A stretch of 64,000 nucleotides of DNA from a virus (taxonomy: Duplodnaviria; Caudoviricetes): the IMG/VR virus record IMGVR_UViG_3300033463_000012. One strand, given 5' to 3'. A program made the translations under genes and the position numbers. The notes below the pieces were generated by a model. That model was not told the origin of the DNA, ran no database searches, and saw only the letters and a list, made by a program, of their open reading frames with translations. Below are positions 12,397 through 34,063 of this stretch, in pieces (position 1 is the stretch's first letter; every line of letters begins with the position of its first letter).

Positions 12397-13386
12397 ATGA
12401 TCAGACACAGAAGAATGATGGAATCTAGAATAAGCGATAAGGCACAAGAAATAATAAATGCCAAGAAGAAACGTCAGGATAGGCGTTCCTCCAAAATGTC
12501 ATACGAAGAGACTCAAGAGGCCGAAAACAAACGTCGCATTGAGCGGATATTCATGATAAAGGTCAAGAAGCTGTACGGTCTTCTTCCTGAGATATTGAAA
12601 GATGTGGAAACTGTTTATCAGGTAACAGGAAAGGCCATAGATGAGGAAGCTGGTGACGAGACTTTTCCTGATATGTTTTTCGGTATCTCAGACAATGAGC
12701 CTTATGTTGAGGTTGAAGCCGACTTGGTAGCTAGGGTTTCCGGGGAAACAGGAAGAAAGCATTTGATTTTGCAAAGTAAATATGACGGTTATTCTCTAAA
12801 TATCGATATAAACGGTGGCAGAGTAATTTACTCTTATATTCTTAAATTCGCCAGGAGCCTAGAGGATGTTGATGAAAGCGAGAGCGACAAGGACGCCATA
12901 GAACATCTTTTCAAACAAATCTCTCGGTGTATTGAAATTGTAGAAGATGATGCTGATGAAGTGAGCAAGAAGCTGGAAGGAATCCTTGACGAATACGACC
13001 GTAAGGAAATTCGTGGAATGAAGGAATCCTACAGACGTCGTGGTCACATGCTTCGTGAAGGACTTCTCAGTCAAGCCAAAGAAGAAGCCGAAAAGAGAAA
13101 GAGCAATGGAAAAATCATTCAGGAAAGGGCAAAGGAATTCCTGAAAGTTTTGAAAGAACTCTATCTGCACGCCGGTTATCATTTTGATTGGGATGAAGCC
13201 GAATGGACATCAGACAATGATCTCAAAATTCCATACGACATCAATGACGAAAAGACCGAAAAATTGGTCAATGAACTTTGCAGATATGGATGGATTTCCA
13301 AATGGAACAAATACAAGATTTGGGTCAAAGCAAAAGAATTTGCGGATGATGACCGTTTTGAAACCCTAATGGGTTGGTTGTCCTAA
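12397..13386 (+). CDS. Hypothetical two-module protein with leader MIRHRRMME and internal linker MKESYRRRGHMLRE
   Basis: Start at 12397 after SD AGGAG; linker at 13018-13059. Confidence 0.8.
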   Translation: MIRHRRMMESRISDKAQEIINAKKKRQDRRSSKMSYEETQEAENKRRIERIFMIKVKKLYGLLPEILKDVETVYQVTGKAIDEEAGDETFPDMFFGISDNEPYVEVEADLVARVSGETGRKHLILQSKYDGYSLNIDINGGRVIYSYILKFARSLEDVDESESDKDAIEHLFKQISRCIEIVEDDADEVSKKLEGILDEYDRKEIRGMKESYRRRGHMLREGLLSQAKEEAEKRKSNGKIIQERAKEFLKVLKELYLHAGYHFDWDEAEWTSDNDLKIPYDINDEKTEKLVNELCRYGWISKWNKYKIWVKAKEFADDDRFETLMGWLS

Positions 13387-13411
13387 TGAAGGTTATTGAT
13401 CAAAAGGAGTT

Positions 13412-14620
13412 ATGAACATGGATTCATTTTGGAGCACAGAAGCATATTTATATCGCGAAGAAGATGATTTCTATTGCTTCAATTGTCTGGGTGATGAAGC
13501 GTCACTTGACATATTCATCGACAAGGAAACATTGGATTCCAGTTATGCCTTGATCATTGGTGATGAATATGCTATCGGGGACAAAGACAATCATGTTTCC
13601 GAAGACGTGATTCTGACCAAAGGAAATGAATTACTGGAAAGCGTGATCGGGGAATATGCAACACTGACCAAAGATCAACTCATGGAGATGACATACAATG
13701 CATCAACCCAGGTCACTTCGGAATACAATGACCTAGGAACCGATACCAGAACAGGGCTTCCTTGGGGTCAAACCGAAGACATGAATGAATCCACTGAACC
13801 GGAAAAACTCGACGAAAGACTGGAAATAGATGACAATTTCAGAGTCATGTGGGGTGGACATTTGACCAACATCGCTGACACTCTGTATGCAATCTACAAG
13901 GGTGGAGACAACTTCAACAGACAAGAATTTCAAGACGGAATGGTAAGAAGCAGAAGTCTGAACAATGCCATGATGTATTTGAACATCTTTTCTGCTCTGC
14001 AACGCAAAGGTTGGCTGACAAAGGAACGTCAGGGTCGTCATTTCAAGTATCATCTTACACCCGAAGGAATGAAACAGGTTGATCGTGTTCTCGCCGCTTT
14101 GGGTGAAAAGAGAAATGACATCAAAACAGCAAAGCCAGAAACAAAGCCGGAAAGCAAACCCGAAACAAAACCAGTGTCCAACAAGATTTCCGTGATGCCT
14201 TTTGAACAGTGTTTCTTCGCCTCAATGGTTTTGGATGCCGAAGATTACAGTGGACCACGTGAATGCTCCTGGATCAGTCCCAGTAATTTGCGTGAAGTGC
14301 TTGAAACATATACAGATGAAGATGACAATCCTTTGAATGTAAATGAACTCAAGCGGCTATATGAAGAATATAAGGCAAAAATCCTCAATGGTGAATCCAA
14401 AAGCAATGCAAAACTTCATAAGGTTGGTTATGACTATGGGGAAATTTCCAGCAGATGCATTCCAGACATCACCGAATATGGAAAATCTTGGCCCGAATAT
14501 GACAGACGGCAGGCACGTGTTCAGCTAGAAACCACACTTTGGATGCTTGTTACAACTTCCAGAGACGATTGGAAATTCAATGACAATGAATGGGATAGTT
14601 GCCCTGTCAAGAAAAAGTAA
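13412..14620 (+). CDS. Hypothetical multi-module protein with a winged-helix-like segment
   Basis: LQRKGWLTKERQGRHFKYHLTPEG; junction MNESTEPEKLDE; KPETKP spacer. Confidence 0.8.
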   Translation: MNMDSFWSTEAYLYREEDDFYCFNCLGDEASLDIFIDKETLDSSYALIIGDEYAIGDKDNHVSEDVILTKGNELLESVIGEYATLTKDQLMEMTYNASTQVTSEYNDLGTDTRTGLPWGQTEDMNESTEPEKLDERLEIDDNFRVMWGGHLTNIADTLYAIYKGGDNFNRQEFQDGMVRSRSLNNAMMYLNIFSALQRKGWLTKERQGRHFKYHLTPEGMKQVDRVLAALGEKRNDIKTAKPETKPESKPETKPVSNKISVMPFEQCFFASMVLDAEDYSGPRECSWISPSNLREVLETYTDEDDNPLNVNELKRLYEEYKAKILNGESKSNAKLHKVGYDYGEISSRCIPDITEYGKSWPEYDRRQARVQLETTLWMLVTTSRDDWKFNDNEWDSCPVKKK

Positions 14621-14628
14621 GGAGAATA

Positions 14629-15264
14629 ATGAACATGAAGGAAAGTGTATTTGACAAAGGCATGCCAGAACACGATTATGTTTGGACAATCTTTGACTAT
14701 GATACTGGTGATTCAGAATACGAAGCGGACACCAGTTTCGAAACAGTTGAAGAAGCCAAAGCCGATGGTTTGGATTTCCTGAAAGGACTGACTGATGGAC
14801 ACTATGTGCTCAAGGTCTGGAATTTCTATGAAGATGAAGGCCCATTGGAAGATGGTGGTGTCCTTTGGATTGAAAGTGACCATGGCGAAATAAAAGATGA
14901 CATGGACGAATCTGTCGAAAGCCACGGTCAGATGCTTAATGAAGATGAATATCTCAGCAATCCTTTCAAGGTCGGGGACATTCTTGCAGGTTCATACAAC
15001 TACCGTGTCATAATTCCTCACTTCACCCAGGTCATTGCAGTCACACCGAAATCAGTGAAGTGCAGAGATTTGGTCGGTCAGGGAATGTCCGGCATGTTCG
15101 GTAACACCGCATACGCCGAAAAGGACGTATTCGACACCAGAGAACCGATTTGGACCGCTCGTGTCAAATACTACCGTGATGGTGATAGTCCACATGTCTA
15201 TCATGGACAGGTCTCGTACAGTCTATGGGACGGCAAGCCCATGCAATACGATTATATGGATTAG
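14629..15264 (+). CDS. Hypothetical two-module protein with linker MDESVESHGQMLNE
   Basis: Start 14629 after SD GGAG; linker 14902-14943, then FKVGDIL..VTPKSV phage-type module. Confidence 0.8.
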   Translation: MNMKESVFDKGMPEHDYVWTIFDYDTGDSEYEADTSFETVEEAKADGLDFLKGLTDGHYVLKVWNFYEDEGPLEDGGVLWIESDHGEIKDDMDESVESHGQMLNEDEYLSNPFKVGDILAGSYNYRVIIPHFTQVIAVTPKSVKCRDLVGQGMSGMFGNTAYAEKDVFDTREPIWTARVKYYRDGDSPHVYHGQVSYSLWDGKPMQYDYMD

Positions 15265-15287
15265 CTGACAAAGAATGAACATAAGAA

Positions 15288-15314
15288 GAGGCCCCACGAA
15301 AATGGGGCCTATTT
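15288..15314. terminator. Terminator between convergent genes
   Basis: AGGCCCCA-CGAAAA-TGGGGCCT followed by ATTTT. Confidence 0.8.
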
Positions 15315-15339
15315 TAATCAATAAATCAGAAGCATGTTT

Positions 15340-16026
15340 TTAATGATATTTGTCTTCCTTCAACATTTTTCCACGATAACGACGAGATTCCTTCATGTTC
15401 CTATGCATTTTGGCGAGTTTCTGTTTCTGTTCAGTCGAAAGAAGTTTCCAATAATTGTTTGGATTGGTGTAGCTCTTGACAGTTTTGTACAATTTGTCGA
15501 CAAGGTTTTTGTATTCATTCAAAAGGTAAATAGTTGGAACAGTAACAGCTTCAATAGTCGGAGTATCAAAATACTCTTCACGACAATCTTCATAGCAACA
15601 AACCAAAAAGTTATACAATTTATCTGGACTGCTAATACAATTTGAGTATTCCAAAGAAGTATCACCACCGGTTCTTGACCAATAAATAGTCAGTGGATAG
15701 TGTACATTAGGGTCATATTCTACATACCACCACAGGTCTGATGGACCAATTACTATAAATCCTTCATGAGTTATTCTGCAAATTTTGTATTCTTTCTCTG
15801 GTTTACTCAATTCTTCAATTAAATCATATTCATCCTGAGGATCTTTTTCAAAATTATCAAGACCATTGCACTTTATTGTCTTTTTATGTTCATCATAAAG
15901 TTCTTCCCAAATTTTATGAATTTTCCTACATTTGTCTTCAATGTAATCTGTAATTTCAGAACATTCCCAAGCTGCATCATGCAACTTCCGTTCTTCCTCT
16001 TCAGTGAATTCATATTCATCACGCAT
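15340..16026 (-). CDS. Hypothetical AT-rich protein ending in linker MKESRRYRGKMLKE
   Basis: 228-aa ORF; reverse CTAAATT at 16053-16059. Confidence 0.8.
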   Translation of the reverse strand: MRDEYEFTEEEERKLHDAAWECSEITDYIEDKCRKIHKIWEELYDEHKKTIKCNGLDNFEKDPQDEYDLIEELSKPEKEYKICRITHEGFIVIGPSDLWWYVEYDPNVHYPLTIYWSRTGGDTSLEYSNCISSPDKLYNFLVCCYEDCREEYFDTPTIEAVTVPTIYLLNEYKNLVDKLYKTVKSYTNPNNYWKLLSTEQKQKLAKMHRNMKESRRYRGKMLKEDKYH

Positions 16027-16052
16027 ATTCGAATCCTTTTGGTTGTTTATTC

Positions 16053-16074
16053 AATTTAGTCCCGTCTCTAAATT
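16053..16074. promoter_or_regulatory. Divergent late promoters (AATTTAG 16053-16059, CTAAATT 16068-16074)
   Basis: Exact motif on both strands. Confidence 0.7.
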
Positions 16075-16095
16075 GGTCAAGAGAGGTGCAATGTC

Positions 16096-17055
16096 ATGAA
16101 AAGATCTGGTTGGCCATATTTCTACAGCTCCAGCATACGCAGATTGTTGGTTGCCTTTATGACCACTTTCTCTGACATCAAGGTTCGTAGATATGATGAC
16201 TCTGGTCTGAAGACACCAGAGCATTACAAGGAAATCCTGGTTCCTATCAAGTTCGGTCCTATGTCAAAGTATTTCCAGAGACGGACTGAAGACGCATCAG
16301 GGCAAAGGTATTACATTCAGCTCCCTGCAATGGCCGTCACATTCTCGTCGTTCTCCTTTGACAATGCACGTTCCACTGCCTCAAGACAAAGACGATTCCT
16401 TCTTGACCCTGACAAATACACCGTTCCTGCTGAATTCCTGACCGACATGATGCCTTCCCCCTGGGACATCAACTTCACTTTGGCCATAAAGACGGAATCA
16501 TTCCAGGACTTCTGCCAGATAATCGAGCAAATCGTTCCCTGGTTCAACCCGGCAATCCACATCAAGGTCAAGGAATTCGAGACTGTCAACTTGGAAAGGG
16601 ACATTGAAGTGATCTTGAACGGGATGAGCACTGACATCACGGAAGAAGTTGAGGAAGACGGCAAGCGATATGTTTCCGGAACCTTGGACTTTGTCGCCAA
16701 GGCCTGGATGTACAAGCCAATCTCAATGGCCGACAACATGATCAAGGTCATCCATACCCACTACGGTTTTGACCCCGAATTCAATCTCGACGGGGAGAAT
16801 TTCGTGACCAAGGGAATGAAGCTGGAAGAGGCAATGGACAAGAAGGAATATCCCATGAAACCTGCGAGAACACGTGGGGAAGTGGACAAGATGGATGTGG
16901 AAAATGCACCTGAAGACTTGCCGGACATGGGATACATCAATGACAAAACCACCGACGGAAGGCCGAATCACGTGCCTTACAATGTCGAAGTGAAGCCGGA
17001 TGAAGCGGAAATGGAATTCAATGCAGAGGATGCAGAAGGAGAAACGAATGGCTGA
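16096..17055 (+). CDS. gp15: Tail sheath stabilizer / tail terminator (gp15-like)
   Basis: SIRRLLVAF..FSDIKVRR, VPIKFGP, QLPAM, PSPWDINFTL..QIIEQIVPWFNP. Confidence 0.93.
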   Translation: MKRSGWPYFYSSSIRRLLVAFMTTFSDIKVRRYDDSGLKTPEHYKEILVPIKFGPMSKYFQRRTEDASGQRYYIQLPAMAVTFSSFSFDNARSTASRQRRFLLDPDKYTVPAEFLTDMMPSPWDINFTLAIKTESFQDFCQIIEQIVPWFNPAIHIKVKEFETVNLERDIEVILNGMSTDITEEVEEDGKRYVSGTLDFVAKAWMYKPISMADNMIKVIHTHYGFDPEFNLDGENFVTKGMKLEEAMDKKEYPMKPARTRGEVDKMDVENAPEDLPDMGYINDKTTDGRPNHVPYNVEVKPDEAEMEFNAEDAEGETNG

Positions 17056-17860
17056 TGTTGAAATCTATGTATGTGCATCCGATAAAAATCTCAAGGACAT
17101 AACCAGATTGAAATTGCCTTCAAACAGAAAAGTCATTACAACAGAAAAATCTGGATTTAAAGACAATATTGACAATTTGAATCCTTGGTATTGTGAAGCA
17201 TCTGCTCTGTATTCTTTGTGGAAAAATTCAACTGCTGACATAATCGGTTTGGAACATTATCGCAGATTCTTTGTATCAAATGGCAAAATATTGAATGAAG
17301 AACAGATAAAGTCAAAGCTGAAAGAAAATGACATTATTGCCTGTGAAATGAAACTCAAATCTCCTACGATAGATGCTGGTTTCAGAAAAGGATTTGTTGG
17401 ATTCCCGTGGACAAAAGAAAAAAGATGTAAAATTCATTGGATGTTGACAGACTTTTTGAATCATCTTTCCGCCACTGAAAAGTATGCAGAGATGTCAAAA
17501 TTCATGCAAAATGAATTGAATCATAGCAGTGCATTCTTCAAGGGAAACATGTTCATTGCCAAAAGGTCTGTAGTTGAACCTTGGTTTGAAATGATGTTCA
17601 CTGAGTTGGAATCCTATCTGAAGTCAAAAAATATAAAATTGGATGAATCGAACCTTAGGTCAATTGGTTGGTTGTTCGAATATCTGTTTTTGCCGTGGTG
17701 TCATTATATGAAATTGAAGATTGCACCATGTAATATCCGTGAATATGATAAATGTCTGAAAAGAATTGATACTGACATTCATGCTATTGTTCATAAAAAG
17801 ATTGTAATAAAGGCAAAGAAAAGAACTACAAGTAAAATTCAAGATGATTGGGAGGACTAG
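17048..17860 (+). CDS. DUF4422-family putative glycosyltransferase
   Basis: DNIDNLNPWYCEASALYSLWKN..IIGLEHYRRFF, NMFIAK, R..GWLFE. Confidence 0.85.
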   Translation: MADVEIYVCASDKNLKDITRLKLPSNRKVITTEKSGFKDNIDNLNPWYCEASALYSLWKNSTADIIGLEHYRRFFVSNGKILNEEQIKSKLKENDIIACEMKLKSPTIDAGFRKGFVGFPWTKEKRCKIHWMLTDFLNHLSATEKYAEMSKFMQNELNHSSAFFKGNMFIAKRSVVEPWFEMMFTELESYLKSKNIKLDESNLRSIGWLFEYLFLPWCHYMKLKIAPCNIREYDKCLKRIDTDIHAIVHKKIVIKAKKRTTSKIQDDWED

Positions 17861-18649
17861 ATGAGATTCGGAAGGGAAGTAAAGGAAAATCCTAGGACAT
17901 TTCAAGAAAAGCTGATCTGGCTGCAATTCTATGACAAAATGAATTGGCTGAAGCCTATATGTTCCGACAAAATAAAAGTCAGGGAATATGTGAAGGAAAA
18001 GATAGGATCAGACATCTGCGTTCCTCTTCTCAAGGTTTATGATTCTCCCGATGACATCAAGCTGGAAGAATTGCCCAATCATTTCATTCTGAAGACAAAT
18101 CACGGAAGTGGTCAATTCATCAGATGCAGAGACAAATCAAAGTTCAATCTTCAGGAAGCGAAATCCAAACTAAAAACCTGGTTGTCTCGTCCTTATGGTG
18201 TCTCCACTTGTGAACCTCATTATTTCTACATAGACAGAAAATGCTATGCCGAGGCACTTCTGGAAAACACCAATGGAAACAACGTGGATGACTACAAGCT
18301 ATACTGTTTCAATGGAAAGCCAAAGATGGTTCAGATGGAATGCGACAAGGGAACACCCAATGCTCGTTTCCAATATTATGACATGAATTTGAAGTTCATG
18401 AACATTTGCAGGACTGATCATAAGAGTCGGAAGGACCTTGTCAAAAAGGATATTCTGCCGAAGCACTTGGACATTATGAAGGAATATGCAGAAAAGTTGG
18501 CCGCACCTTTCAAATTCGTTCGGGTTGACTTTTATGAAGTGAACGGAAAGGTGTATTTTGGCGAAATGACATTTGTCCCAGGTGCAGCTAATTTTTCATT
18601 TACGAATCCTAATGTATCATTGGAATTGGGGAAGTGGCTCAATATATGA
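17861..18649 (+). CDS. TupA-like ATP-grasp amide ligase
   Basis: NPRTFQEKL, DKIKVREYV, FILKTNHGSG, DYKLYCFNGKP, FVRVDFY..GEMTF. Confidence 0.9.
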   Translation: MRFGREVKENPRTFQEKLIWLQFYDKMNWLKPICSDKIKVREYVKEKIGSDICVPLLKVYDSPDDIKLEELPNHFILKTNHGSGQFIRCRDKSKFNLQEAKSKLKTWLSRPYGVSTCEPHYFYIDRKCYAEALLENTNGNNVDDYKLYCFNGKPKMVQMECDKGTPNARFQYYDMNLKFMNICRTDHKSRKDLVKKDILPKHLDIMKEYAEKLAAPFKFVRVDFYEVNGKVYFGEMTFVPGAANFSFTNPNVSLELGKWLNI

Positions 18650-19476
18650 AGTATTCAATCCTTACATACAATTTCGGTGGCTATGACAATCCAAGGAAAC
18701 CACAGGAAGTTTCCAAGGAAGCTGAATATGTTTTCGTGACAGATTCCAAGGGTTCAGTTGCTCCTTTTGTCAGGAAATCATTGAACATCAAGGGAACGCC
18801 ATTGGCCAAGTGTCAATATGTGAAGCATCATCCTTTCGAGTTCGTGTCATCTGATTGGGTCATAGTCATGGACTCGAGCATTGAAATTCAGCAGGACTTG
18901 ACCCCTTTGGTCGAATATTGTCAAGAAAAGGGAATTGAAGCAATGTTCATTTCCTCTCCATACGCCACTACATGGAAAACTGAAATCAAACCGAATCCAG
19001 TCTGGCAGAAAAGGAATCCCAATCTCAAGAAGGAAATCGATTGGCTTTGGAAGACATTCCCAGATGACAGATTAAACATAGAAGGGATGTTCTACATATT
19101 GCACAAAACTGATTTGGTGAACAGCATATTCTCATCTATTGTAGCTCACTGTAATGACTTGAAGAAACATGGCAGTGATCCGCGTCCTTGTCAGGTGATC
19201 TATTCCGGGACAGTGGCCAATGAATTTGCAGAAGAAATCAAATCCGGCAAAATCTCCTTTATGTCCTCATATCAGATTCGTGGTGCAGGTACAATGATGT
19301 GCATCTACCAACATGGGTCAAATAGGAAGTTTTCTGTTCTGAAATGTAGAGACGGAGTGAACATCATAGGTCTTGACTACAAACCACTTACTTTTAAGTG
19401 GCTGGATAGAGTTAAACCTTCAAAACCGGAAGTTCAAAAGAAACATATTTCAGGATTTGAGGAGTGGGATGAATGA
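18646..19476 (+). CDS. DUF616-like putative glycosyltransferase
   Basis: ILTYNFGGYD..EYVFVTD, YVKHHP, IVMDSSI. Confidence 0.65.
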   Translation: MKYSILTYNFGGYDNPRKPQEVSKEAEYVFVTDSKGSVAPFVRKSLNIKGTPLAKCQYVKHHPFEFVSSDWVIVMDSSIEIQQDLTPLVEYCQEKGIEAMFISSPYATTWKTEIKPNPVWQKRNPNLKKEIDWLWKTFPDDRLNIEGMFYILHKTDLVNSIFSSIVAHCNDLKKHGSDPRPCQVIYSGTVANEFAEEIKSGKISFMSSYQIRGAGTMMCIYQHGSNRKFSVLKCRDGVNIIGLDYKPLTFKWLDRVKPSKPEVQKKHISGFEEWDE

Positions 19477-20216
19477 TCAGAATAATGTCATTAGGCAGTA
19501 ATTGTGCAGACCTTTCATATCTTGGTGATTTTCGGGTTCCTGGTCCTGTTGACAATTGGGTGGCCAATCATGGATTTGAAGATGCATTGCATCTTTTCAC
19601 TGATTTCAAACAACAGATAGAAAGTGGATGGTTGGAAGCAAAACCAAGAATAAAAGCATTTGCTGAAGACAGTGACATAAATTTCAGATATGAGTCTTAT
19701 TCATGCATTCATCTTGACATGAGAAATCCTGATATTGTCAAGAAGGTTTTCAAACGTTATGAAACAATGATTGAATTTGCAGAAAAGGTGAAGGCCGACC
19801 CGGAATGCTATTTTTCGTATACCTTGGGGTGTCATGATATTTGCAAAGAGAAAGGATTGTTCGTATTAAAAAAAGAAACTGTAAATGCAATCAAAGAATT
19901 TGGCAAGACATTTCCATTGAACAAACTCATTCTGGTCGGGACGACAAAGGTCAAAGTGAAGGGTGGATATTTCAATGGTTATATTGAAAAGAAACCAGAA
20001 TTTGCCAATTATGTTTTCATACCGGATATATCAGTGTCTGCAAGAAAGTTGACCAAGAAAGAAAATTCAGAATGCATGCGAAAAAACATGGATCATATAA
20101 ATGATCCGGGTGGAATACCTTTTAAGAAACCTTCAGATTTCATTGAGCATAAAAAGGTAATAGTCAAAAAACCTGTACATAAAAGGACTGTAAAATACGA
20201 TGATTGGGACGACTAA
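19473..20216 (+). CDS. DUF1796-like (putative papain-like) protein
   Basis: N-terminal SLGSNC..PGPVDNW, resembling SLGxxC..PFDW. Confidence 0.55.
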   Translation: MIRIMSLGSNCADLSYLGDFRVPGPVDNWVANHGFEDALHLFTDFKQQIESGWLEAKPRIKAFAEDSDINFRYESYSCIHLDMRNPDIVKKVFKRYETMIEFAEKVKADPECYFSYTLGCHDICKEKGLFVLKKETVNAIKEFGKTFPLNKLILVGTTKVKVKGGYFNGYIEKKPEFANYVFIPDISVSARKLTKKENSECMRKNMDHINDPGGIPFKKPSDFIEHKKVIVKKPVHKRTVKYDDWDD

Positions 20217-20997: not shown

Positions 20998-20998
20998 G

Positions 20999-21005
20999 CT
21001 AAATT
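20999..21005 (+). promoter_or_regulatory. Putative late promoter CTAAATT
   Basis: Exact intergenic motif. Confidence 0.7.
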
Positions 21006-21028
21006 GAATAAACATTAAGGAGTGTATT

Positions 21029-21808
21029 ATGAGAAAGAAATATGAACTAACAGATGAAACAATGGAATGGAAAGGACATACCTTGCATCGGATTCGTGCT
21101 CTCAAGAATTTCAAATACACCGAAGAAGGTAATCTTGGTGGTTGGGTTGAATCAGAAGACAACTTGAGTCAAGAAGGCAATTGTTGGATATATAGCCATG
21201 CCAAGGTATATGACAATGCGGTAGTAATGGACAATGCTGATGTATCTGGTGATGCTCAAGTATATGGTAATGCAGTCATAAAAAAAGAAGCGAAAGTAAG
21301 TTATAATGCCAAGGTATATGGTAATGCCACGATTGAAGGAGATTCCTTAGTATTTGGAAATGCAACCATTTGCGACAATGCCAAATTACTGTGGCATGCT
21401 GAAGTGACAGATCATGCCATTATAGCCGATAATGCCAAGGTATCTGGTAATGCCAAGGTATATGACGATGCTGTAGTAAATGGATATGCCGAGATACACG
21501 ACAGTGCCGAAGTATATGGTAATGCTCATGTATCTGAAAAAGCATGGGTATATGGTGAAGCAAGAGTATATGATGATGCTCATATATACGGAAGTGCTCA
21601 GGTTTATGGAATTTCCAAAGTATATGAAGAAGCACAGGTATATGAAAATGCAAAGGTGTCAGGTGATATTTGGATCAATGGCAAAGCCGATGTTCACGGT
21701 GATGTTATTCTTGGGCCTGCTGTTGGTCAGTTAGATATTTGTGGAACTGCAAATATTGAATCGAATGATGATGTCAATATTCCCAGAGGTAGAAAAACAA
21801 TTCATTAG
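21029..21808 (+). CDS. Hexapeptide-repeat (left-handed beta-helix) phage protein
   Basis: KYELTDE..LHRIRAL..LGGWVESEDNLSQEGNCWI followed by about 25 AKVYGN-type repeats. Confidence 0.9.
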   Translation: MRKKYELTDETMEWKGHTLHRIRALKNFKYTEEGNLGGWVESEDNLSQEGNCWIYSHAKVYDNAVVMDNADVSGDAQVYGNAVIKKEAKVSYNAKVYGNATIEGDSLVFGNATICDNAKLLWHAEVTDHAIIADNAKVSGNAKVYDDAVVNGYAEIHDSAEVYGNAHVSEKAWVYGEARVYDDAHIYGSAQVYGISKVYEEAQVYENAKVSGDIWINGKADVHGDVILGPAVGQLDICGTANIESNDDVNIPRGRKTIH

Positions 21809-21829
21809 GATTTTGAAATAGGAGCATAT

Positions 21830-22771
21830 ATGAAGCAACCAATAATGGTCAATGAATTCGATGAAGATTTGTTCGATTCCTTTTATGAAGGCAGTGCATT
21901 GACTTTCCTTGGAATGGTCCCGGAGGAAGCCCAGAATTATCTTGACTATTTCAAGGACTATACCGACGTCGATGACAATGTCCAGTGCTACATCGTCAGC
22001 GGAAGTGCAATGAATGACGGGTATGGCCTGCGGGGATCAAACAGATATCCGGATGACCTTCATATCTTCATTGTCCCCCTGGAAGCGTTCGGTGATGTAG
22101 GCAAGATCGCCATTCCTCGGTTCCAAATCGGTGGCCGTTGGTTTGATGACGTAGTCGACAACAATGCTCGGAAAAACATGGAGGAATCCTGTCATTGTCG
22201 TGGTCATCAACTCAATGAACGATGGAGTTCAGACGAAGATACGGTTTATTCATGTCTTCATTATTGTAATAAATATGAAAAGCCAATATGGTTTGCAGAA
22301 TTGAATGACGATGAGTATTATTTTGACCTGTATTTAAACATAGGCCGTTTGCTTGGAGAAGCCAAACCGCTCATTCCTTCCAATCTGTTGAAAATATGGG
22401 AAGCATTAGCAGATTATGAATTCGAAGACGAAGATGCAGATACCATAGATTTTGCATACAATTATGTTAAGACTGGAGATAATGGACACTATGGCAATGA
22501 CCCCGATGCAGAAGGTTATGCTTATGCAAAGTTGAACATAGATGGAAATATCAATATAGAGGATTACATTATTCCGGTGATTGAAGGCGCTTTGGGCATA
22601 GTGAATGATCCTAGCAATGGCTTTATTGACAAAGATGCTAGTTTAAGTGAAGATGAACTTCTGTCTGCAGAAAATATCTTCATCGATGCACTTGTCAAAA
22701 CATATAATTCAAATGGATATGACAAAGAATTGAACGATTTGGATGGAAAAGAATTCGAGGAAAATTTTTAA
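21830..22771 (+). CDS. Hypothetical two-module protein with linker MEESCHCRGHQLNE
   Basis: Module 1 GSAMNDGYGL..YPDDL..GGRWFDDVVDNN; linker 22178-22219. Confidence 0.85.
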   Translation: MKQPIMVNEFDEDLFDSFYEGSALTFLGMVPEEAQNYLDYFKDYTDVDDNVQCYIVSGSAMNDGYGLRGSNRYPDDLHIFIVPLEAFGDVGKIAIPRFQIGGRWFDDVVDNNARKNMEESCHCRGHQLNERWSSDEDTVYSCLHYCNKYEKPIWFAELNDDEYYFDLYLNIGRLLGEAKPLIPSNLLKIWEALADYEFEDEDADTIDFAYNYVKTGDNGHYGNDPDAEGYAYAKLNIDGNINIEDYIIPVIEGALGIVNDPSNGFIDKDASLSEDELLSAENIFIDALVKTYNSNGYDKELNDLDGKEFEENF

Positions 22772-22794: not shown

Positions 22795-22828
22795 AAACCC
22801 TGCCCCTCAAAAGGCAGGGTTTTCTTTT
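22795..22828 (+). terminator. Rho-independent terminator
   Basis: AAACCCTGCC-CCTCAAAA-GGCAGGGTTT followed by T tract. Confidence 0.85.
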
Positions 22829-24187: not shown

Positions 24188-24537
24188 TGAGTTTCCAAAC
24201 TTCACTGCTAATCAACATTCTGCAAAAGAAATTGGCAGAACATGGTTGGGAAATCGACATCAGTTTTGATTCAGTGGTTCCCGGTTGCACATTCTTTTAT
24301 GTCTGGACAAAAGATGATAAAATAATGTTCCGGATTCATGTGGAATTCAATGGAGATATCGGCCACGTGTTCATCAGAAAAATATGGAAGGACGGTGTAT
24401 CTCATAAAATTCCTGACATCTGGTCCAAAGAGGAAAGCGAGCTGATCAACAAGACAATCGAAGCGATGGAAAACGAAAAACATCTCAAGACAAGGGTGAA
24501 GAAGAAGGATGTCTTGAATAGGATAAAGGGGAAATGA
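24187..24537 (+). CDS. Hypothetical protein (same family)
   Basis: TGATG overlap; FQTSLLINILQKKLAEHG. Confidence 0.75.
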   Translation: MSFQTSLLINILQKKLAEHGWEIDISFDSVVPGCTFFYVWTKDDKIMFRIHVEFNGDIGHVFIRKIWKDGVSHKIPDIWSKEESELINKTIEAMENEKHLKTRVKKKDVLNRIKGK

Positions 24538-25556: not shown

Positions 25557-25592
25557 AATAGTTATATTTGGCCTATAAGGAGAAAATCATAG

Positions 25593-27073: not shown

Positions 27074-27923
27074 TTTTTCGTCCCTCAAAGCCCAGATTGA
27101 CCAGATGTCGCATCGTGGTCCGAAGCGTCAGCCGTCAGACCCTCGCTTCTACGATCTCACTTTCCCTGAAGGCGAGACTCGTGCCACCGCGATCATCCGT
27201 TTCCTTCCTTCCAAGATTGGCGATCCTAACTGCTTCGTCAACGTGAAGTCGCACTGGTTCAAGTATTCGACCCCGGAAGGAACCCGCAACTTCTATGAAC
27301 CCTGCCCTCGCACCATCGGTCATAAGTGCCCCATTTGTGACTACGCCTTCGCCCACAAGGACGACAAGGGGAAGATGGCCGGCGACGCCTTCATCACCAA
27401 CATCATGGTGATCAAGGATCCCAACAAGCCCGAGAATGAAGGCAAGGTTTTCCTGTTCCGTTTCAAGAGGGACGTCTGGAAGAAGATTCAGCAGGTGATT
27501 TCTCCTGAAGACGGCATTGATGAACCCGCGAACATCTTTGACTTGGAAAGCGCTCCCAACCTCAAGTTGGTTTGCACCAAGCGTTCCGTTCCTGGTTTCG
27601 TCCGCCCTGTCGCTCGCTACGATGAATCCGCTTGGACTTCTCCCACCCCGATCATCATCAAGGGCGAGAAGATGTCCGAGGAGTTCTTGGACAGCATCAA
27701 CGACAAGGTCTATTCCCTGGAAGAATTCATCGCTCCTGACAAGTTCAAGAGCTATGAAGAATTGCAGGGCAAGTTCGACCTCGCCGTGAACACCCTCTCG
27801 GAAGTTCCCAATGAAGCCGAAGCGCCTTCTGCAGAAATTCCGGAATCCTCCCCCAAGACTGACTCCAACAAGTTCGTGAAGGGTCAGGACACCGTCGGGG
27901 AAGATTTCTTTGACAACCTTTAG
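27054..27923 (+). CDS. gp32: Single-stranded DNA-binding protein (gp32-like)
   Basis: DPRFY, AIIRFLP, EPCPRTIGHKCPIC, VIKDPNKPENEGKVFLF, acidic tail. Confidence 0.96.
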   Translation: MPRNNIDFSSLKAQIDQMSHRGPKRQPSDPRFYDLTFPEGETRATAIIRFLPSKIGDPNCFVNVKSHWFKYSTPEGTRNFYEPCPRTIGHKCPICDYAFAHKDDKGKMAGDAFITNIMVIKDPNKPENEGKVFLFRFKRDVWKKIQQVISPEDGIDEPANIFDLESAPNLKLVCTKRSVPGFVRPVARYDESAWTSPTPIIIKGEKMSEEFLDSINDKVYSLEEFIAPDKFKSYEELQGKFDLAVNTLSEVPNEAEAPSAEIPESSPKTDSNKFVKGQDTVGEDFFDNL

Positions 27924-27945
27924 TGTGTAAATCCTCTCACACCGT

Positions 27946-27977
27946 CGGGGGCTCCTAACTGAGCCCCCTTTTCTTTT
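27946..27977 (+). terminator. Terminator after gp32
   Basis: GGGGGCTC-CTAACT-GAGCCCCC followed by TTTTCTTTT. Confidence 0.88.
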
Positions 27978-28000
27978 GTCTCCATTATTCAAAAGAAAGG

Positions 28001-28107
28001 CTCCCTGACTGCACAGGAAAGTCAAGGAGCCACTTTCTGATGATGCTAGTATAAACTACTAGGCCTATGTACAAATGGCCTAGGACTCATCCTGGTCAGT
28101 GTCAGAG
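28001..28107 (+). repeat. Dispersed ~105-bp dyad-symmetric element, copy 3
   Basis: CTCCCTGACTG..GAGCCACTTTC-core GCTAGTATAAACTACTAG-AAATGGCCTAGGACTCATCCTGG; overlaps the 3' end of the convergent ORF. Confidence 0.8.
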
Positions 28108-28577
28108 AATTTCTCCCTGGACTTGCGAACATTCTCGTCCAGCTTGCGGATGCATTCCCAGTTGGCCATGGGGACGATGGTGTAATTTCCGAGACAGGGA
28201 AGACTTTTCTTTTTCGACTGAGGAAAAACCTCCTGTCCGATGAGGAAATTCTTGATGAGTCCTTCGACGGAAATGTCCAGAGAGGGATCAATTTCCTTGG
28301 CTTCGTTCAGGATTCGGTCGACCTTCGCTTCAATCCACGGGGTCAACTTGAAATACTTCCCGCGGCCCACCTGCTTGTAGACGAAAAAGCCACCGCTCAC
28401 CATGGCGGCGACCAATTCATTGCAGGAAATGTAGCCCTTGGACTTGAACATGATGGAATCCGCGTTCACCCCTTCCGGAAAGCAATAGGGGACGAAAAGC
28501 ATCTTCATGTAGGTGGAAAATCTCACCTTGCCGTTTTTCACGGTATATGGCGTCTTGAAAGTAGGAACATTGACCAT
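28080..28577 (-). CDS. Hypothetical early protein
   Basis: Start at 28577 (MVNVPTF) after SD CAGGAGG and an early promoter. Confidence 0.8.
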   Translation of the reverse strand: MVNVPTFKTPYTVKNGKVRFSTYMKMLFVPYCFPEGVNADSIMFKSKGYISCNELVAAMVSGGFFVYKQVGRGKYFKLTPWIEAKVDRILNEAKEIDPSLDISVEGLIKNFLIGQEVFPQSKKKSLPCLGNYTIVPMANWECIRKLDENVRKSREKFSDTDQDES

Positions 28578-28607
28578 AGTGGCCTCCTGACATAGTGTGG
28601 TTCTATG

Positions 28608-28643
28608 TATAATATAATAACTTTTCGGCCAAATGGTATACAA
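28608..28643 (-). promoter_or_regulatory. Early promoter
   Basis: TTGTAT..GGCCGAAAAGTTATTATATTATA. Confidence 0.75.
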
Positions 28644-28666
28644 AATTTGAAGAAAATTCACCTGGA

Positions 28667-28673
28667 CTAAATT
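28667..28673 (+). promoter_or_regulatory. Putative late promoter CTAAATT (fibre 1)
   Basis: Exact intergenic motif. Confidence 0.7.
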
Positions 28674-28712
28674 GACCAGGAAAAGGATCAAATCGTATTC
28701 AGGGTAGGATAT

Positions 28713-31700
28713 ATGGCCAATTCATACGATTACAACGAAGTTCAGCCGGGTGCATCTGACATTGACCGTGAGGCTTGGCCCGTCATGTATGACCCCTATG
28801 GGGACGATGACGGGTTGAAGGAAGTATCAACCAAAGACACGAACACGGTGGACTTGTCGGGGAAGGGGACATCCAACAGCAAGTTGTCCGCGGACGTGAA
28901 GGTGAGCAAGCAGGAAAACAATGCCTTGAAGGCCTTGTCCGATGGCTTGTATGTGGCGGACAAATCACCTGTCCTGTCGATCAAAGGTTCAGAATTCATT
29001 GACGTTTCCTCGGCGGAGCCACAGCGTCCAGTCATTTCATTGAAGAAATCCGAAGATGAATCCAATGACCTCGTGGACAATGGTGGGCTTTATGTTCATG
29101 TTCCGGTGAAGGAAATTCAGGGTTCCGACACGGTGGACGTTTCCAAGGAAGATGACACTTGGTCAATAGATGTGAAACTTGACCCGAATCAAGGAAATGT
29201 CATTCTGTCCACCGAAAATGGACTGAAGGCGGAGATAGCTTCCGGGGTGATCACAGAGGTCGAGGGTTCCAATTCAATCTCGGCCACAAAAAGCGGGAAT
29301 GTCTACACTCTTGACACACTGATTTCGACCGCAACCGACAATGCCCTTCAATCCACGGAAAACGGGTTGTATGTTCCTAATACCGTGGTCCCTGAAGATT
29401 TCATCAAATCCGTGGACGACACCGACTCGATCACCCTCACGGTTGACGAGAATGCAAAATTGACTGCAGATGTCAAGGTGGACAACACCAATCCTGGAAA
29501 CGTGACTTTCTCCTTTACTCCGAATGGTTTGAAAGGCGAAGTCGAAATTCCTGCGGATTATGTCACTGGAGTTCAGGACACGGCCGACGTCAAGTTGTCA
29601 GTGAATGAAGGAATCCTGAGTGCAGAAATCGCTTCAGGGGTGATTCCTGAAATTCGTGGTTCTGAGTCAATAGACGTTCAGACTTCTGGGAACGTGAATG
29701 TAATCACGACCAACATATCCAGTGCAGCTGACAATATGATTTCAGTTGCAAGTGGTGGCCTGTATGTTCCTCCGACCGAAATCCCAGATGTTCCTGTGAA
29801 GAGTTTGGTCGAAGGCAATTGTATTGAAATAACTGAAAATCCTTCTGGAACATTTGAAATAGGAACGAAAGTTTCAGAATTTTATGACAATGACCTGACA
29901 ACCAAATCCGATGGACTTTATGTAAGGGTTCCTGTAAAGGAATTCACCGAAGGAAATGGCATAGAAATCAATGACTATGGTGGTGAAGGGAATTTCACCA
30001 TTGGACTCAAGGGCTATTCAATAGAAAACCTTGATGGTGAAAATGGCGTAAATGTTCAATCTGATGTCGATGAAACCAGTTGGACAATTTCAGCCAATAT
30101 CTCGGAAGACGAGGGAAACAAGGTCGAAATCAGTGAAAATGACCAAGGTCTTTATGTAGGTCCAGAACTTCCCTCTGGTGGTTCAGTCGGCCAGGTGCTG
30201 AAGAAAACCGCAAATGGTTCCGAATGGGGAGATGAACAAACTCAGTATGTCTCGGGAATCACAGACTCCAACACAATTTCCTTGGCTGTTGATCAAGGTC
30301 AGCTTTCCGCCTCTGCAAACATTTCCAATGAATCCGGAAACATCCTTGAGGACAGAAACGGTCTTTATGTTCCGAATTCAGTGATTCCCCAGGACTTCAT
30401 TCGGTCGGTCGGAAACACTGATTCAATTTCCCTGAATGTGGATGCAAATGGGGAACTTACAGCTTCGGCCAGAATAGACACCAACAACCCCGGTAATGTT
30501 CACCTGAGCATCACTGAAGATGGCTTGGTGGCTTCTGCAGACATTCCCGAGGACTACATCAACAACGTGGTCGATTCGGAAACCGTTCATCTTTCAGTGG
30601 ATGACGGGGACCTCTCGGCTTCGGCAAAGGTATCTTCAAAGGGAGACAACCAGACTGATCCCGCGAATGCCCTGGAAATCGAACAGGACGGCCTTTGGAC
30701 TCCCACCCTCTACCTTGGACCATTCGATTCCTCGGCTCGTCCTTCTGAAGCGATAACTGGTCAATACATTTTCGACACTGACCTTGGATATTGTCTCTAT
30801 CGTCATGGAGGTGCATGGGTCAACTCAACCGGCGCCATAGTCGAAGGAAACGTTGAACCCACAGGTCAGGCGGTGGATTGGCTGGTGAATCCGATGACCG
30901 CCTATGGAGACTTGCTCGTGGGTGGACCTAGCGGAACTCCAAGTGCAATGCATGTCGGGCCTTCTGGAGCCTATCTCAAATCCGGTGAAAATGGTCTTGA
31001 ATGGGGAGAAGTGAATTCCCTGGTCCTTTCCGACCTGGCCGACAACACAGCCACCGTGATTGAGGATGGACAACATGATGGCCTCTATGTTCCTCCTAGC
31101 TCACTTGAAGGAATGATAACCACTGCAGGTGATTTGATTGCAGGTGACGCCAGTGGTGAACCTGATACATTGTCCAAGGGAACAGTCGGGCAAGTCCTTA
31201 CCTCGACCCAGAACGGAATTGAATGGCAAACCGGTATCCATGCACCCAATGTGGAAATCGCCTCAACCAACAGCACTGACTTGACCTTGTCCTCCCGTAA
31301 CGCCAAGTGCCAAATCTACACTGACTCCTCTGAATCCATTTACATAAAGACTTCGGACGATGCACTTTCGGCCAAGATGATCAACATCATCTCCGAACAG
31401 GAATATGGCGACCCGGACCAGTATGGAAACAGGGCCCGGTATCAGTCCTATGTGCAAATTCTGGACACTTATGGCGTCTACATGGCGACGAACAATGGAA
31501 CCATTAACATTTCCAATTACTCGAACAACCTCAACTCCTACATCCAGATAACCAACCAGGGCTCGTCCAATATCAAAATCTACGGTCAGAACGGGTTGAC
31601 TATCGGTGCTTTGAACGATAACTGCAAGACCTACTATGGCTGGAGCGACACCCTGATGGAAGGCGGTTTGGTCAACGTCAAGTCGAAGAGCAACACGATG

Positions 31701-32777
31701 ACCATAGACGGATACAGCAACACCTTCATTTACAGCCGAAACGGATATGTTCGTCTGGAAGGCAAAAACGGTATTTATCTGAACCCCAACACCAATGCCG
31801 GGGTATACGCCAATACCAACAATGGAGGAAACCCGAACACCTCCTACTACGGCGCCTCGTTCTCTTTGACCACCTCCTCGTTCAACACGCAGACGATGTA
31901 TATGGCCAACCACGGAACGGCGAGCGAAATCAGCTCCTCGATCGTGGTTTCACAGTCTTACGCCGGGGTTTCCATAGTATCGCAGAACCCCTATGATGGG
32001 ACGTTCGTTGCGAAAATGACATACTCCTCGGAAGGCAGTCTCCAATTCGACAACTATCCTTCCGAATACGACGACACAAAGACCTACGAATTACTGGGTA
32101 TTCAAACCGACGATGGAACGGTCGACAAGGTATCCATGACGGATGCCTTCAACTCCGGTTCTCCGATTACCTCTTACGGCGACCTGATCTACGGCGACGC
32201 TTCGGGTATCGCTTCGGCTCTCCCGATAGGAACCGAGGGGCAGGCTCTTGTTGTGGACTCCTATGGTCAAATCGCCTGGGAAGACAAACCCCGTTCTTGC
32301 CAGGAAAACTATGCTTTCGTCAACTCCACCAACATCGAAAGTGCAGATGACTACAAGGGAAGATTGTTTGTTTCCCGGGTAATCTGCAACCACGACGGGA
32401 ACTATTCGGAACTCGGGTTTGCCCTGAAATCTGGCACCACGGGCAAGGTAGGCATGGCGATATACGACGTGAACAGTGATCTTGTGGCACGGACGGAGCT
32501 GATCGAAATTTCCAACCCGACAATAGATGGATATATCTACTGGCATGAAACCGAAAACGAATACGTTTTGCATGCCGGGGAAGAATACTACTTCGCGATA
32601 TGGTTTGGTGATTACCCATATTCCAATACATTGCAGGTGTTCGCAAAGGTGGTCGACAGCTCCCTTGATGCCTTAATGATGGGGACGGTAATCGGTCAAC
32701 AGTCGATAACGGAAATGCCCACAACTCTTGGAACGCTGAACTATGAACGGTATTGCTTCCACATGTCAGCGAGGTAG
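28713..32777 (+). CDS. Large repetitive tail-fibre-like virion protein 1
   Basis: Many N-x-L-xxxx-GLYV repeats, GDLIxGxASG..GQVLT modules, late promoter. Confidence 0.8.
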   Translation: MANSYDYNEVQPGASDIDREAWPVMYDPYGDDDGLKEVSTKDTNTVDLSGKGTSNSKLSADVKVSKQENNALKALSDGLYVADKSPVLSIKGSEFIDVSSAEPQRPVISLKKSEDESNDLVDNGGLYVHVPVKEIQGSDTVDVSKEDDTWSIDVKLDPNQGNVILSTENGLKAEIASGVITEVEGSNSISATKSGNVYTLDTLISTATDNALQSTENGLYVPNTVVPEDFIKSVDDTDSITLTVDENAKLTADVKVDNTNPGNVTFSFTPNGLKGEVEIPADYVTGVQDTADVKLSVNEGILSAEIASGVIPEIRGSESIDVQTSGNVNVITTNISSAADNMISVASGGLYVPPTEIPDVPVKSLVEGNCIEITENPSGTFEIGTKVSEFYDNDLTTKSDGLYVRVPVKEFTEGNGIEINDYGGEGNFTIGLKGYSIENLDGENGVNVQSDVDETSWTISANISEDEGNKVEISENDQGLYVGPELPSGGSVGQVLKKTANGSEWGDEQTQYVSGITDSNTISLAVDQGQLSASANISNESGNILEDRNGLYVPNSVIPQDFIRSVGNTDSISLNVDANGELTASARIDTNNPGNVHLSITEDGLVASADIPEDYINNVVDSETVHLSVDDGDLSASAKVSSKGDNQTDPANALEIEQDGLWTPTLYLGPFDSSARPSEAITGQYIFDTDLGYCLYRHGGAWVNSTGAIVEGNVEPTGQAVDWLVNPMTAYGDLLVGGPSGTPSAMHVGPSGAYLKSGENGLEWGEVNSLVLSDLADNTATVIEDGQHDGLYVPPSSLEGMITTAGDLIAGDASGEPDTLSKGTVGQVLTSTQNGIEWQTGIHAPNVEIASTNSTDLTLSSRNAKCQIYTDSSESIYIKTSDDALSAKMINIISEQEYGDPDQYGNRARYQSYVQILDTYGVYMATNNGTINISNYSNNLNSYIQITNQGSSNIKIYGQNGLTIGALNDNCKTYYGWSDTLMEGGLVNVKSKSNTMTIDGYSNTFIYSRNGYVRLEGKNGIYLNPNTNAGVYANTNNGGNPNTSYYGASFSLTTSSFNTQTMYMANHGTASEISSSIVVSQSYAGVSIVSQNPYDGTFVAKMTYSSEGSLQFDNYPSEYDDTKTYELLGIQTDDGTVDKVSMTDAFNSGSPITSYGDLIYGDASGIASALPIGTEGQALVVDSYGQIAWEDKPRSCQENYAFVNSTNIESADDYKGRLFVSRVICNHDGNYSELGFALKSGTTGKVGMAIYDVNSDLVARTELIEISNPTIDGYIYWHETENEYVLHAGEEYYFAIWFGDYPYSNTLQVFAKVVDSSLDALMMGTVIGQQSITEMPTTLGTLNYERYCFHMSAR

Positions 32778-32779
32778 TA

Positions 32780-33199
32780 ATGATAGGTTATCATCTTTCA
32801 CTGGTTCCGAACATTCGCAAATTCCAATCTTCAAAGAGCGGAAGCGGTTTTGGGACGAATTTCTATGGTCCGGGACTCTATGTGGCTTTGGACACGGAGC
32901 CAATAGAAAACTGGGCCGAAATGATGGATGCTGATACATACTACGTATATGAAGTTGAAATCCCCGATACAGCCAACATACTGGATGACGAGAACAAGTA
33001 TTGGGACGTTGTGGCCAAATACGTTGATTTTGACAAAGAGGAGCCAAGCAACGAGGATTTGCGAAGGGCTTCCAACTATATGGTCAGAAAACTCGGCTAT
33101 GAAGGACTGAATTATTGGAATGAAGAGGACGGAAATGCAATAGTCCTTTGGAAGCCTTCAGTCGCTAGGATTGTTTCAATGAAAGAACACAGAAACTAA
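32780..33199 (+). CDS. ADP-ribosyltransferase-fold protein
   Basis: YH..F....G...YGPGLY, YVYEVEI, GYEGLNY..IVLW pattern typical of polyvalent-protein ART domains; start 32780 after GAGG. Confidence 0.6.
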   Translation: MIGYHLSLVPNIRKFQSSKSGSGFGTNFYGPGLYVALDTEPIENWAEMMDADTYYVYEVEIPDTANILDDENKYWDVVAKYVDFDKEEPSNEDLRRASNYMVRKLGYEGLNYWNEEDGNAIVLWKPSVARIVSMKEHRN

Positions 33200-33202
33200 A
33201 TT
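33196..33202 (+). promoter_or_regulatory. Putative late promoter CTAAATT
   Basis: Exact motif overlapping the upstream stop. Confidence 0.7.
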
Positions 33203-33241
33203 GAACAAAGCCAAACAGAAGAATCGATTTGGACAAGGAAG

Positions 33242-34063
33242 ATGAATATGTTCGTAATGAATGATTTGACGAGAAGAGCCATTGTCGAGGCCATAAGGAA
33301 ATATGGTCTCACCAGGTGCTACGAGGAAGACCTCCACAAGGGTTCGGCGCTCTACTGCTATTGGGTGAACAACAACTTCTTCCAGTCCGAGGCTTACAAG
33401 GTCCTAATGGACGTCGAGAACAAGTTCGGTGCACATGGTGTTCTGGGCCGTCCTCGTGACCATTTCTCCCAGACCGTCGTGGAAAGAACCGAGGAGCGGA
33501 TGTTCAACTATGGTTTTCGCGGTGGACGTGTCCTATACATCGTCGACCCACTTTCATTCGAGATTGACTCCTATCTGGACAAGAACAACATCCCATCAAA
33601 GGAAGGGGAATATCTGAAAGCCGTGGAAGAAATAGACCGCGAAGATGAATCCAGAAACTACAGAGGCAGTATGCTGAAAGAGTCCTCCGATAGCAAATAC
33701 GAACTGACCGATGAGACGATGAAGTGGAAAGGTTGGTTGGTTTTATATCGTATTCGTGCACTTCGTTCCTTTGGAGATGTGAAGAAGGGAGACAAGGGCG
33801 GCTGGGTCGAAAGAATCGGCAATCTTTCTCTCAGTGGTGATTGCTGGATATACGACGATGCAAAGGTGTTTGGACCGGCAAAAGTATGTCATGATTCCCA
33901 AGTTCGAGATGAAGTCGAAATTCAAGGATATACCGGAATATACGGAAATTCCAAGATATGTGGAAACACCACAATAGGTGGGCGATCATCGTTGACAGAT
34001 GTCGAGGTTCGTGGGAGAGATGTCAAATTATATGACGTCACATTACAAGGTGTGCGAAAATAG
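33242..34063 (+). CDS. Two-module protein: unknown N-module, linker EDESRNYRGSMLKE, hexapeptide-repeat module
   Basis: C-module KYELTDETM.WKG..LYRIRAL is homologous to the start of ORF 21029. Confidence 0.85.
   Translation: MNMFVMNDLTRRAIVEAIRKYGLTRCYEEDLHKGSALYCYWVNNNFFQSEAYKVLMDVENKFGAHGVLGRPRDHFSQTVVERTEERMFNYGFRGGRVLYIVDPLSFEIDSYLDKNNIPSKEGEYLKAVEEIDREDESRNYRGSMLKESSDSKYELTDETMKWKGWLVLYRIRALRSFGDVKKGDKGGWVERIGNLSLSGDCWIYDDAKVFGPAKVCHDSQVRDEVEIQGYTGIYGNSKICGNTTIGGRSSLTDVEVRGRDVKLYDVTLQGVRK

Follow-up and report, generated by a model that had tools for sequence, protein, structure and literature searches.

Why would five otherwise dissimilar proteins of one phage carry the same ungapped peptide of 14 residues? 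The question is raised by the 64,000-nucleotide stretch of viral DNA analysed here (IMG/VR record IMGVR_UViG_3300033463_000012; the window), whose identified genes place it in a distant or rare T4-like myovirus. A reading of the sequence alone had located this peptide, hereafter the linker, in five open reading frames (ORFs A to E) between 13018 and 33682, and had proposed that it joins the parts of polyproteins that are cut apart in the phage head. Comparison with related loci demonstrates, at the level of the predicted proteins, that the linker is a true junction of recombining modules in probable late proteins. That these proteins are polyproteins cut by the phage's own head protease during head maturation is a reading that we hold with about even confidence, and that they are packaged in the head and injected as cargo may be suggested more weakly, by analogy with T4.

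Each of the five 14-mers translated as had been quoted, and the coordinates and strands were correct:

13018 to 13059, plus strand: linker MKESYRRRGHMLRE, residues 208-221 of ORF A; profile score 43.4
14902 to 14943, plus strand: linker MDESVESHGQMLNE, the least basic copy, residues 92-105 of ORF B; profile score 39.0
15355 to 15396, minus strand: linker MKESRRYRGKMLKE, a C-terminal tail, residues 211-224 of the 228 of ORF C, followed by DKYH and stop; profile score 44.6
22178 to 22219, plus strand: linker MEESCHCRGHQLNE, residues 117-130 of ORF D, directly 3' of the GGRWFDDVVDNN module
33641 to 33682, plus strand: linker EDESRNYRGSMLKE, residues 134-147 of ORF E, with a beta-solenoid module five residues on

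The core pattern [RHK]G.[MQ]L.E matched only five times in the six translated frames of the window (~128,000 residues), and all five matches were linkers. A BLOSUM profile of the 14-mers gave the linkers scores of 39.0-44.6, and the next-best 14-mer in the six frames scored 22.6; the profile maxima of ten shuffled windows were 15.0-22.8, so this runner-up lies within the shuffle range. The profile scan, which the sequence-only reading had suggested as a check, thus returned five matches and then noise in the window, and it was also run on the loci of relatives. These relatives (L-numbered loci and P-numbered proteins) were drawn from ENA and Logan metagenome assemblies.

Module junctions in the window and in relatives

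The proteins that carry linkers, half-linkers or a related module are as follows; the likely start codons at 12397 (ORF A) and 14629 (ORF B) are corrections to these two ORFs:

12397 to 13386, plus strand: ORF A (329 residues), leader MIRHRRMMES, N-module, linker and C-module of 108 residues
14629 to 15264, plus strand: ORF B (211 residues), starting MNMKES, with the linker between two modules
15340 to 16026, minus strand: ORF C (228 residues), a single module with a C-terminal linker and with its own late-promoter-like motif and terminator
21830 to 22771, plus strand: ORF D (313 residues), GGRWFDDVVDNN module, linker and acidic module of 183 residues
33242 to 34063, plus strand: ORF E (273 residues), N-module, linker and YdcK-type beta-solenoid (phrog_5070)
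21029 to 21808, plus strand: stand-alone beta-solenoid, starting MRKKYELTDETMEWKG like most of its family
12138 to 12167, plus strand: N-terminal half-linker leader MIRRRRLYEE of ORF 12138-12395
39639 to 39674, plus strand: N-terminal leader MRRNDILGLDES on a late ORF, a possible half-linker leader (by inspection only)

The five ORFs had been called otherwise unrelated, and their ten flanking modules proved to be mutually without BLASTP similarity, except for the solenoid pair: the C-module of ORF E, which had been likened to the stand-alone ORF at 21029, matched 21029-21808 at 1.5e-26 (BLASTP). This YdcK-type solenoid was also the sole family match when the modules were searched against Pfam and PHROGs, which gave no known function for the others, and Foldseek searches of the modules against PDB and ESM Atlas returned nothing usable. 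ORF C had zero homologues in the protein collection.

That the linker sits at module boundaries was borne out by homologues that start or end within a few residues of it. It lies between two modules in four of the proteins, but in ORF C it is a C-terminal tail. The clearest case is the beta-solenoid family (phrog_5070, YdcK repeat), which usually starts M-x-KK-YELTDE and is stand-alone in nearly all of its 77 homologues. Three fusions were found with three different N-modules (ORF E, P0007 and L018 651-1727), and in all three the distance from the linker end to YELTDE was 4-5 residues. The N-module of ORF E in turn recurred in P0008, at 75% identity, with other downstream modules: a degenerate linker, a Cys-rich module, the canonical linker YDESCHRHGRMLRE and a third module. 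Likewise, the GGRWFDDVVDNN module of ORF D closes P0002, which ends six residues past NNAR, whereas in P0003-P0005 it comes first and has other partners. The C-module of ORF A stood behind a linker with four other N-modules (P0086, P0088, P0089 and P0090), and when P0088 and P0089 were compared their C-modules were identical, with the identity starting within the linker. In L022 and L023 a common N-module occurred with or without a linker-joined C-module, and one C-module family occurred behind two N-modules. L022 carried seven linkers in 11 kilobases (kb), the first directly after the capsid gene, and L023 carried four linker-like sequences in 9 kb, three of which scored >27 while the fourth, at 22.2, was the degenerate P0008 copy.

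Breakpoints between shuffled modules that fall inside the linker might mean that it is a recombination joint and nothing else, a stretch kept for cassette recombination with no role for the peptide. We give this explanation very little credence. The same codon was used at only 29 of 64 identical linker residues, with Arg, Leu and Ser codons varying freely, so conservation tracks amino-acid positions, and 42 nucleotides this diverged would be a poor substrate for homologous recombination. In addition, no DNA-level homogenisation of linkers was seen in the window. Since codons are free while residues are kept, selection appears to act on the linker peptide and not on its DNA.

The system is limited to a rare clade of T4-like phages. 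Marine T4-like loci with proteases 47-55% identical to that of the window had zero linkers, and the GenBank phage collection held zero close DNA relatives of the window. An IMG/VR scan with the gp15-like protein gave zero relatives, and one with a linker DNA pattern gave 17 matches, approximately the chance number, none of the same system. A JGI metagenome scan with the consensus linker DNA gave 5 matches, of which one (L034) looked genuine. The pattern scan also picked up a homologous segment, ES-x2-QRG-x-MLRE-x-A-x-L-x2-AGY-x-Q, in two unrelated IMG/VR contigs (L004 5602-5637 and L008 1983-2018); this is probably a different family and a chance pattern match.

Grammar of the peptide and its proposed processing by the head protease

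Position counts were taken over 22 distinct linker instances from the window and relatives. The consensus was [MLF]-x-E-S-x3-[RH]-G-x-M-L-x-E, then S, G or D. Position 1 was M, L, F, Y or I in 18 of the 22; Glu3, Ser4 and Arg or His at position 8 were each kept in 21, Gly9 in all 22, Met11 in 16, and Leu12 and Glu14 in 21 apiece, and the residue following Glu14 was Ser or Gly in 15 and Asp in 4. The linker is therefore made up of two hydrophobic-x-Glu sites, each with a small residue after it, that stand ten residues apart around a spacer that is usually Arg/His-rich. The spacer has an isoelectric point (pI) of 10-12 in most copies.

The candidate processing enzyme and the head proteins on which it would act lie at the start of the window:

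55 to 693, plus strand: T4 gp21-family prohead protease, the candidate processing enzyme (phrog_207, 4.3e-71; PDB 5JBL, 3.6e-24)
1137 to 2300, plus strand: acidic scaffold protein, pI 4.7 (phrog_237)
2278 to 3804: major capsid protein, best phage match 33% identity
2449 to 2466, plus strand: capsid-protein maturation site RGFLTE, next residue A (FLTEA as in T4 gp23, by alignment)

In the alignment, ORF 55-693 has GELDHP (His) and GVSSRG (Ser) at two positions that are Ala in the 5JBL chain. These positions correspond to the catalytic H85 and S140 of T4 gp21 (PMC12991175), which identifies the ORF, by alignment, as a gp21-family serine protease with both catalytic residues present. T4 gp21 recognises I/L-x-E and, less strongly, x-x-E, and cuts behind the Glu (PMC12991175). 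Across the 22 instances this rule (I/L-x-E, then a small residue) is matched by both halves of the linker. T4 gp23 is matured by a cut after the Glu of FLTEA, and the corresponding RGFLTE of the window had been described as related to the linker: the L-x-E is common to the two, but the RG is shifted by one residue relative to RG-x-M-L-x-E. Furthermore, the scaffold contained 26 [LI]xE sites against 10.0 expected from its composition, a number reached by 0 of 500 shuffles. The T4 gp22 scaffold is cut into small pieces, and the excess here would fit extensive fragmentation by the protease as in T4 gp22.

We propose that the 14-mer would be a conserved processing and tagging cassette of the form [hydrophobic]-x-E/S, a usually Arg/His-rich spacer with an invariant Gly, and M-L-x-E/(S, G or D), where the slash marks a predicted cut. 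The phage's gp21-type prohead protease would cut after one or both Glu residues and so set free the modules, along with a ~10-residue peptide, basic in the majority of copies. More tentatively, the cassette would also take the proteins into the head, perhaps by contact between its basic spacer and the acidic scaffold, and the modules would end as internal or ejected head proteins, as happens with the T4 capsid-targeting sequence for IPI-III and Alt. The targeting step is suggested because T4 gp21 works inside the prohead. For the polyprotein reading with which this analysis began, the module boundaries, the shuffling, the units led by a late-promoter-like motif, the gp21-family protease with its FLTE/A site and the fit of the linker to that enzyme all stood; "linker" is an unfit word for the ORF C tail.

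The placement of the peptide says more. Its second half occurs alone as an N-terminal leader, and the complete linker occurs as a C-terminal tail (P0085, P0087 and ORF C); P0085 and P0087 open with MIRRRRLFES and close with MKESRLRRGRMIRE-SRLRRFRRR and a stop. These half-linker leaders and whole C-terminal linkers mark the peptide, from where it stands, as a tag as well as a joint. If a basic stretch with hydrophobic-x-E is the leader for the next module, and x-E-S closes the preceding one, half-linkers would be as expected under such a grammar. Two other readings of these elements were rejected. A twin-arginine translocation (Tat) signal in MIRRRRLFES was set aside by inspection, the hydrophobic region being missing after it, and an internal translation start at the linker Met was rejected since upstream Shine-Dalgarno-like sequences were weak or absent and the Met is not kept in relatives.

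Structure models were made with AlphaFold. In ORF E (53-row alignment), residues 131-146 were coil with a predicted local distance difference test score (pLDDT) <50, and the solenoid began at residue 153 with a pLDDT of ~93. In ORF A (7-row alignment), the linker was mid-helix between the modules, with a pLDDT of 57-60 and flanks of 83-90. The possibility that the linker lies inside a folded domain was thereby checked, and in neither model was it in a compact globular domain, which is weak evidence as the alignments are shallow.

Several findings weigh against cleavage by the head protease and delivery through the head. Position 1 was Thr, Lys or Glu in four of the 22 instances, so that the first site is not always canonical, and the conserved Gly9, Arg/His8 and Met11 are unexplained by the known gp21 rule; their conservation may reflect binding to some partner. 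The cargo modules were not depleted of [LI]xE (63 against 70.2 expected), a result that carries little information, and in the ORF A model the linker is part of one continuous long helix. Two of the five window linkers are non-basic (pI 4.8 and 6.7), which weakens electrostatic targeting. In relatives, linker genes follow the capsid gene (L022), lie near the neck gene (L023) or stand between sheath and tube (L032), and such a place among tail genes means that position implies no head association. Finally, L023 encodes a separate Clp-family protease besides the clade's gp21-type enzyme.

Some of these points would be met if the peptide were an uncleaved short linear motif, that is, a docking tag by which a common partner (the acidic scaffold, portal or neck, DNA, or a chaperone) recruits any module. 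The constraint on Gly9, Arg/His8 and Met11 exceeds what gp21 specificity needs, a complete linker at a C terminus has nothing there to separate, the RGR core looks AT-hook-like, and the helix through the linker of ORF A would also suit docking. We nevertheless consider docking by itself unlikely: it leaves unexplained why both ends have hydrophobic-x-E plus a small residue, the exact form of the capsid and scaffold sites, and why N-terminal leaders that end in x-E-S consist of the second half by itself. Docking and cleavage are also compatible, as the T4 targeting sequence does both.

A second alternative accepts cleavage and makes the spacer its main product, so that small Arg-rich peptides would serve as DNA counter-ions in the head, as T4 internal peptides do, with the modules of lesser importance. 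The high pI of most spacers agrees with this, as do the extra SRLRRFRRR after the final linker of P0085 and P0087 and an Arg-rich protein (L018 12285-13199) with L-x-E-S-like sites (LIES, LHES, MAES and LAES) every 7-15 residues of its N-terminal part. However, acidic or neutral spacers make up two of the five in the window, and the diversity and turnover of the modules suggest selection on the modules, which makes this explanation distinctly improbable. The L018 protein continues, after its punctuated Arg-rich N-terminal part, with an acidic segment and then a Lys/Cys-rich tail.

The third alternative is another protease, either a phage Clp-family enzyme or a host enzyme, acting in the cytoplasm and apart from head maturation. 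L023 has a true Clp-family protease gene (1883-2440; Pfam 1.2e-24), beside the T4 neck-protein gene and two genes upstream of the linker genes. In addition, T4 gp21 is able to cut disordered loops in the cytoplasm (PMC12991175), so cleavage need not mean packaging. Against this, a Clp-like gene was found neither in the window nor in the loci of relatives other than L023, and cleavage behind the Glu of hydrophobic-x-E marks the gp21 family, not ClpP; we regard it as very improbable.

Known systems and consequences

The closest known system is that of T4 head proteins with N-terminal propeptides of 10-20 residues, which direct them to the prohead core before being cleaved off (PMC5694885, PMC3012670). 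Like the T4 capsid-targeting sequence (CTS) of IPI, IPII, IPIII, Alt and gp24, the linker is short and conserved and is carried by fast-evolving, probably late proteins that are otherwise unrelated; its last residues are hydrophobic-x-Glu, with a small residue next, in a phage with a gp21-family protease and an FLTE/A site, and N-terminal leader forms exist here too (MIRRRRLFES). A CTS-like leader, MKNFKEYLKE, was found on a different protein in relative L032. Unlike the CTS, the window copies lie inside the protein (residues 92-221) or at its C-terminal end (211-224 of 228), and what stands at N termini is half-linkers only (MIRHRRMMES, MIRRRRLYEE and MNMKES). Whereas the CTS is a propeptide on single proteins, the cassette has two putative sites and chains two to four modules, and by inspection it has no likeness to MKTYQEFIAE beyond the terminal hydrophobic-x-E. 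Targeting and cleavage are proven for the CTS in T4 and predicted for the cassette, which would be an internal, dual-site, chain-forming variant of the T4 capsid-targeting and gp21 theme.

Two other systems are similar in part. In phiKZ-like giant phages (SPN3US and 201phi2-1), a gp21-related protease processes many of the head proteins, in some cases at several sites, by cutting behind the Glu of a three-residue motif, and conserved N-terminal leaders are common to paralogues (PMC5694885). The gp21-related protease, the Glu in a three-residue motif and the multiple sites are points of likeness to these head and ejection proteins; their propeptides differ from the linker in being >100 residues long with an A/S-x-E motif, and no fixed-length linker stands between unrelated modules. 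The polyvalent proteins of phages and conjugative elements carry several effector modules per polypeptide and are predicted to undergo packaging and delivery together with the DNA; in some cases a peptidase processes them (Iyer et al. 2017, PMC5512222). The concept of several unrelated modules in one polypeptide is the same, but polyvalent proteins are large, have recognisable enzymatic domains and often have a peptidase domain of their own, whereas the modules here are small orphans of 90-210 residues without Pfam or PHROG function, and the one conserved peptide that joins them would be a substrate for cleavage in trans. The literature that we searched contained no description of such a fixed linker in a T4-like phage, and the motif itself was not found in it.

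If cutting and head targeting are true, the T4 capsid-targeting idea, hitherto one of single N-terminal tags, would be widened to polyproteins chained by an internal, portable joint, and the fast reshuffling of a large set of delivered proteins would be explained. Dozens of orphan modules would become candidate injected effectors or anti-defence proteins, and the cassette would be a small natural peptide for both tagging and release, of use in filling T4-type capsids with foreign proteins. A plug-and-play form of the proposal goes further: one dual-site cassette would be capsid-targeting signal, release site and recombination joint at once, adjoining small genes would be loaded, cut free and delivered with the DNA, the Arg-rich peptides would be kept as DNA counter-ions, and the Glu ends might be substrates of a RimK-type ligase. 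All of this together is a tentative possibility that we consider rather doubtful. The late head operon of the clade does contain a gene for a RimK-type ligase. What RimK extends is a C-terminal Glu, and ends of this kind would be left by a cut after Glu.

At L018 19185-20765, a RimK-type ATP-grasp ligase (Pfam 2.5e-39) has a weak RimB-like domain, and LLKES and an acidic module come after it. Many small ORFs neighbouring this gene end in EEE.

Expression units and neighbouring genes

The units in which the linker genes stand, and the neck and tail genes beside them, are as follows:

12104 to 12112, plus strand: late-promoter-like CTAAATTGA, ahead of the unit ORF 12138, ORF A, ORF 13412 and ORF B
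16051 to 16059 (position 16054), minus strand: late-promoter-like CTAAATTGA, ahead of ORF C
20999 to 21007, plus strand: late-promoter-like CTAAATTGA, ahead of the solenoid gene and ORF D
33196 to 33204, plus strand: late-promoter-like CTAAATTGA, ahead of ORF E
15289 to 15310: strong bidirectional terminator between ORF B and ORF C
22795 to 22822: strong bidirectional terminator after ORF D
11241 to 12107: neck/adaptor-like protein
16096 to 17055: gp15 tail-sheath stabiliser

All five linker genes had been placed downstream of a CTAAATT late motif, which is true per transcription unit, the motif standing 20-45 nucleotides before the first gene. CTAAATTGA is found at the same distance upstream of the protease, scaffold, gp25, gp15 and fibre genes; its putative identity as a late promoter comes from this position, and its total count in the window is not above chance. 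The five genes thus form self-contained units with a late-promoter-like motif, placed amid structural genes, and two of the units are ended by strong terminators. A check for the linker in early genes found none of the five in the early/replication part of the window.

The motif and the 5' leader after it are near-identical at 12104-12137 and at 16026-16059 on the minus strand (CTAAATTGAAyAAACAACCAAAAGGA), ahead of two divergent linker units, which suggests that a promoter-leader cassette was duplicated.

Other recognised genes of the window encode the gp25 and gp6 baseplate wedge proteins, RNase H, the clamp loader, gp32 and the long fibres. In the relatives, patatin-like phospholipase genes that are 95% identical lie beside linker-bearing genes in L022 (9124-9987) and L023 (5516-6379), and IS605 OrfB/TnpB (Cas12f-like) genes are inserted among late cargo-like genes in L018 (1-234, and 15372-16550 on the minus strand). 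In the window, three adjacent glycosyltransferase-like ORFs (17000-17860, 18646-19476 and 19473-20216) have near-identical acidic-Trp C-terminal ends, QDDWED, FEEWDE and YDDWDD, each followed by the stop; these tails look like a common C-terminal docking motif.

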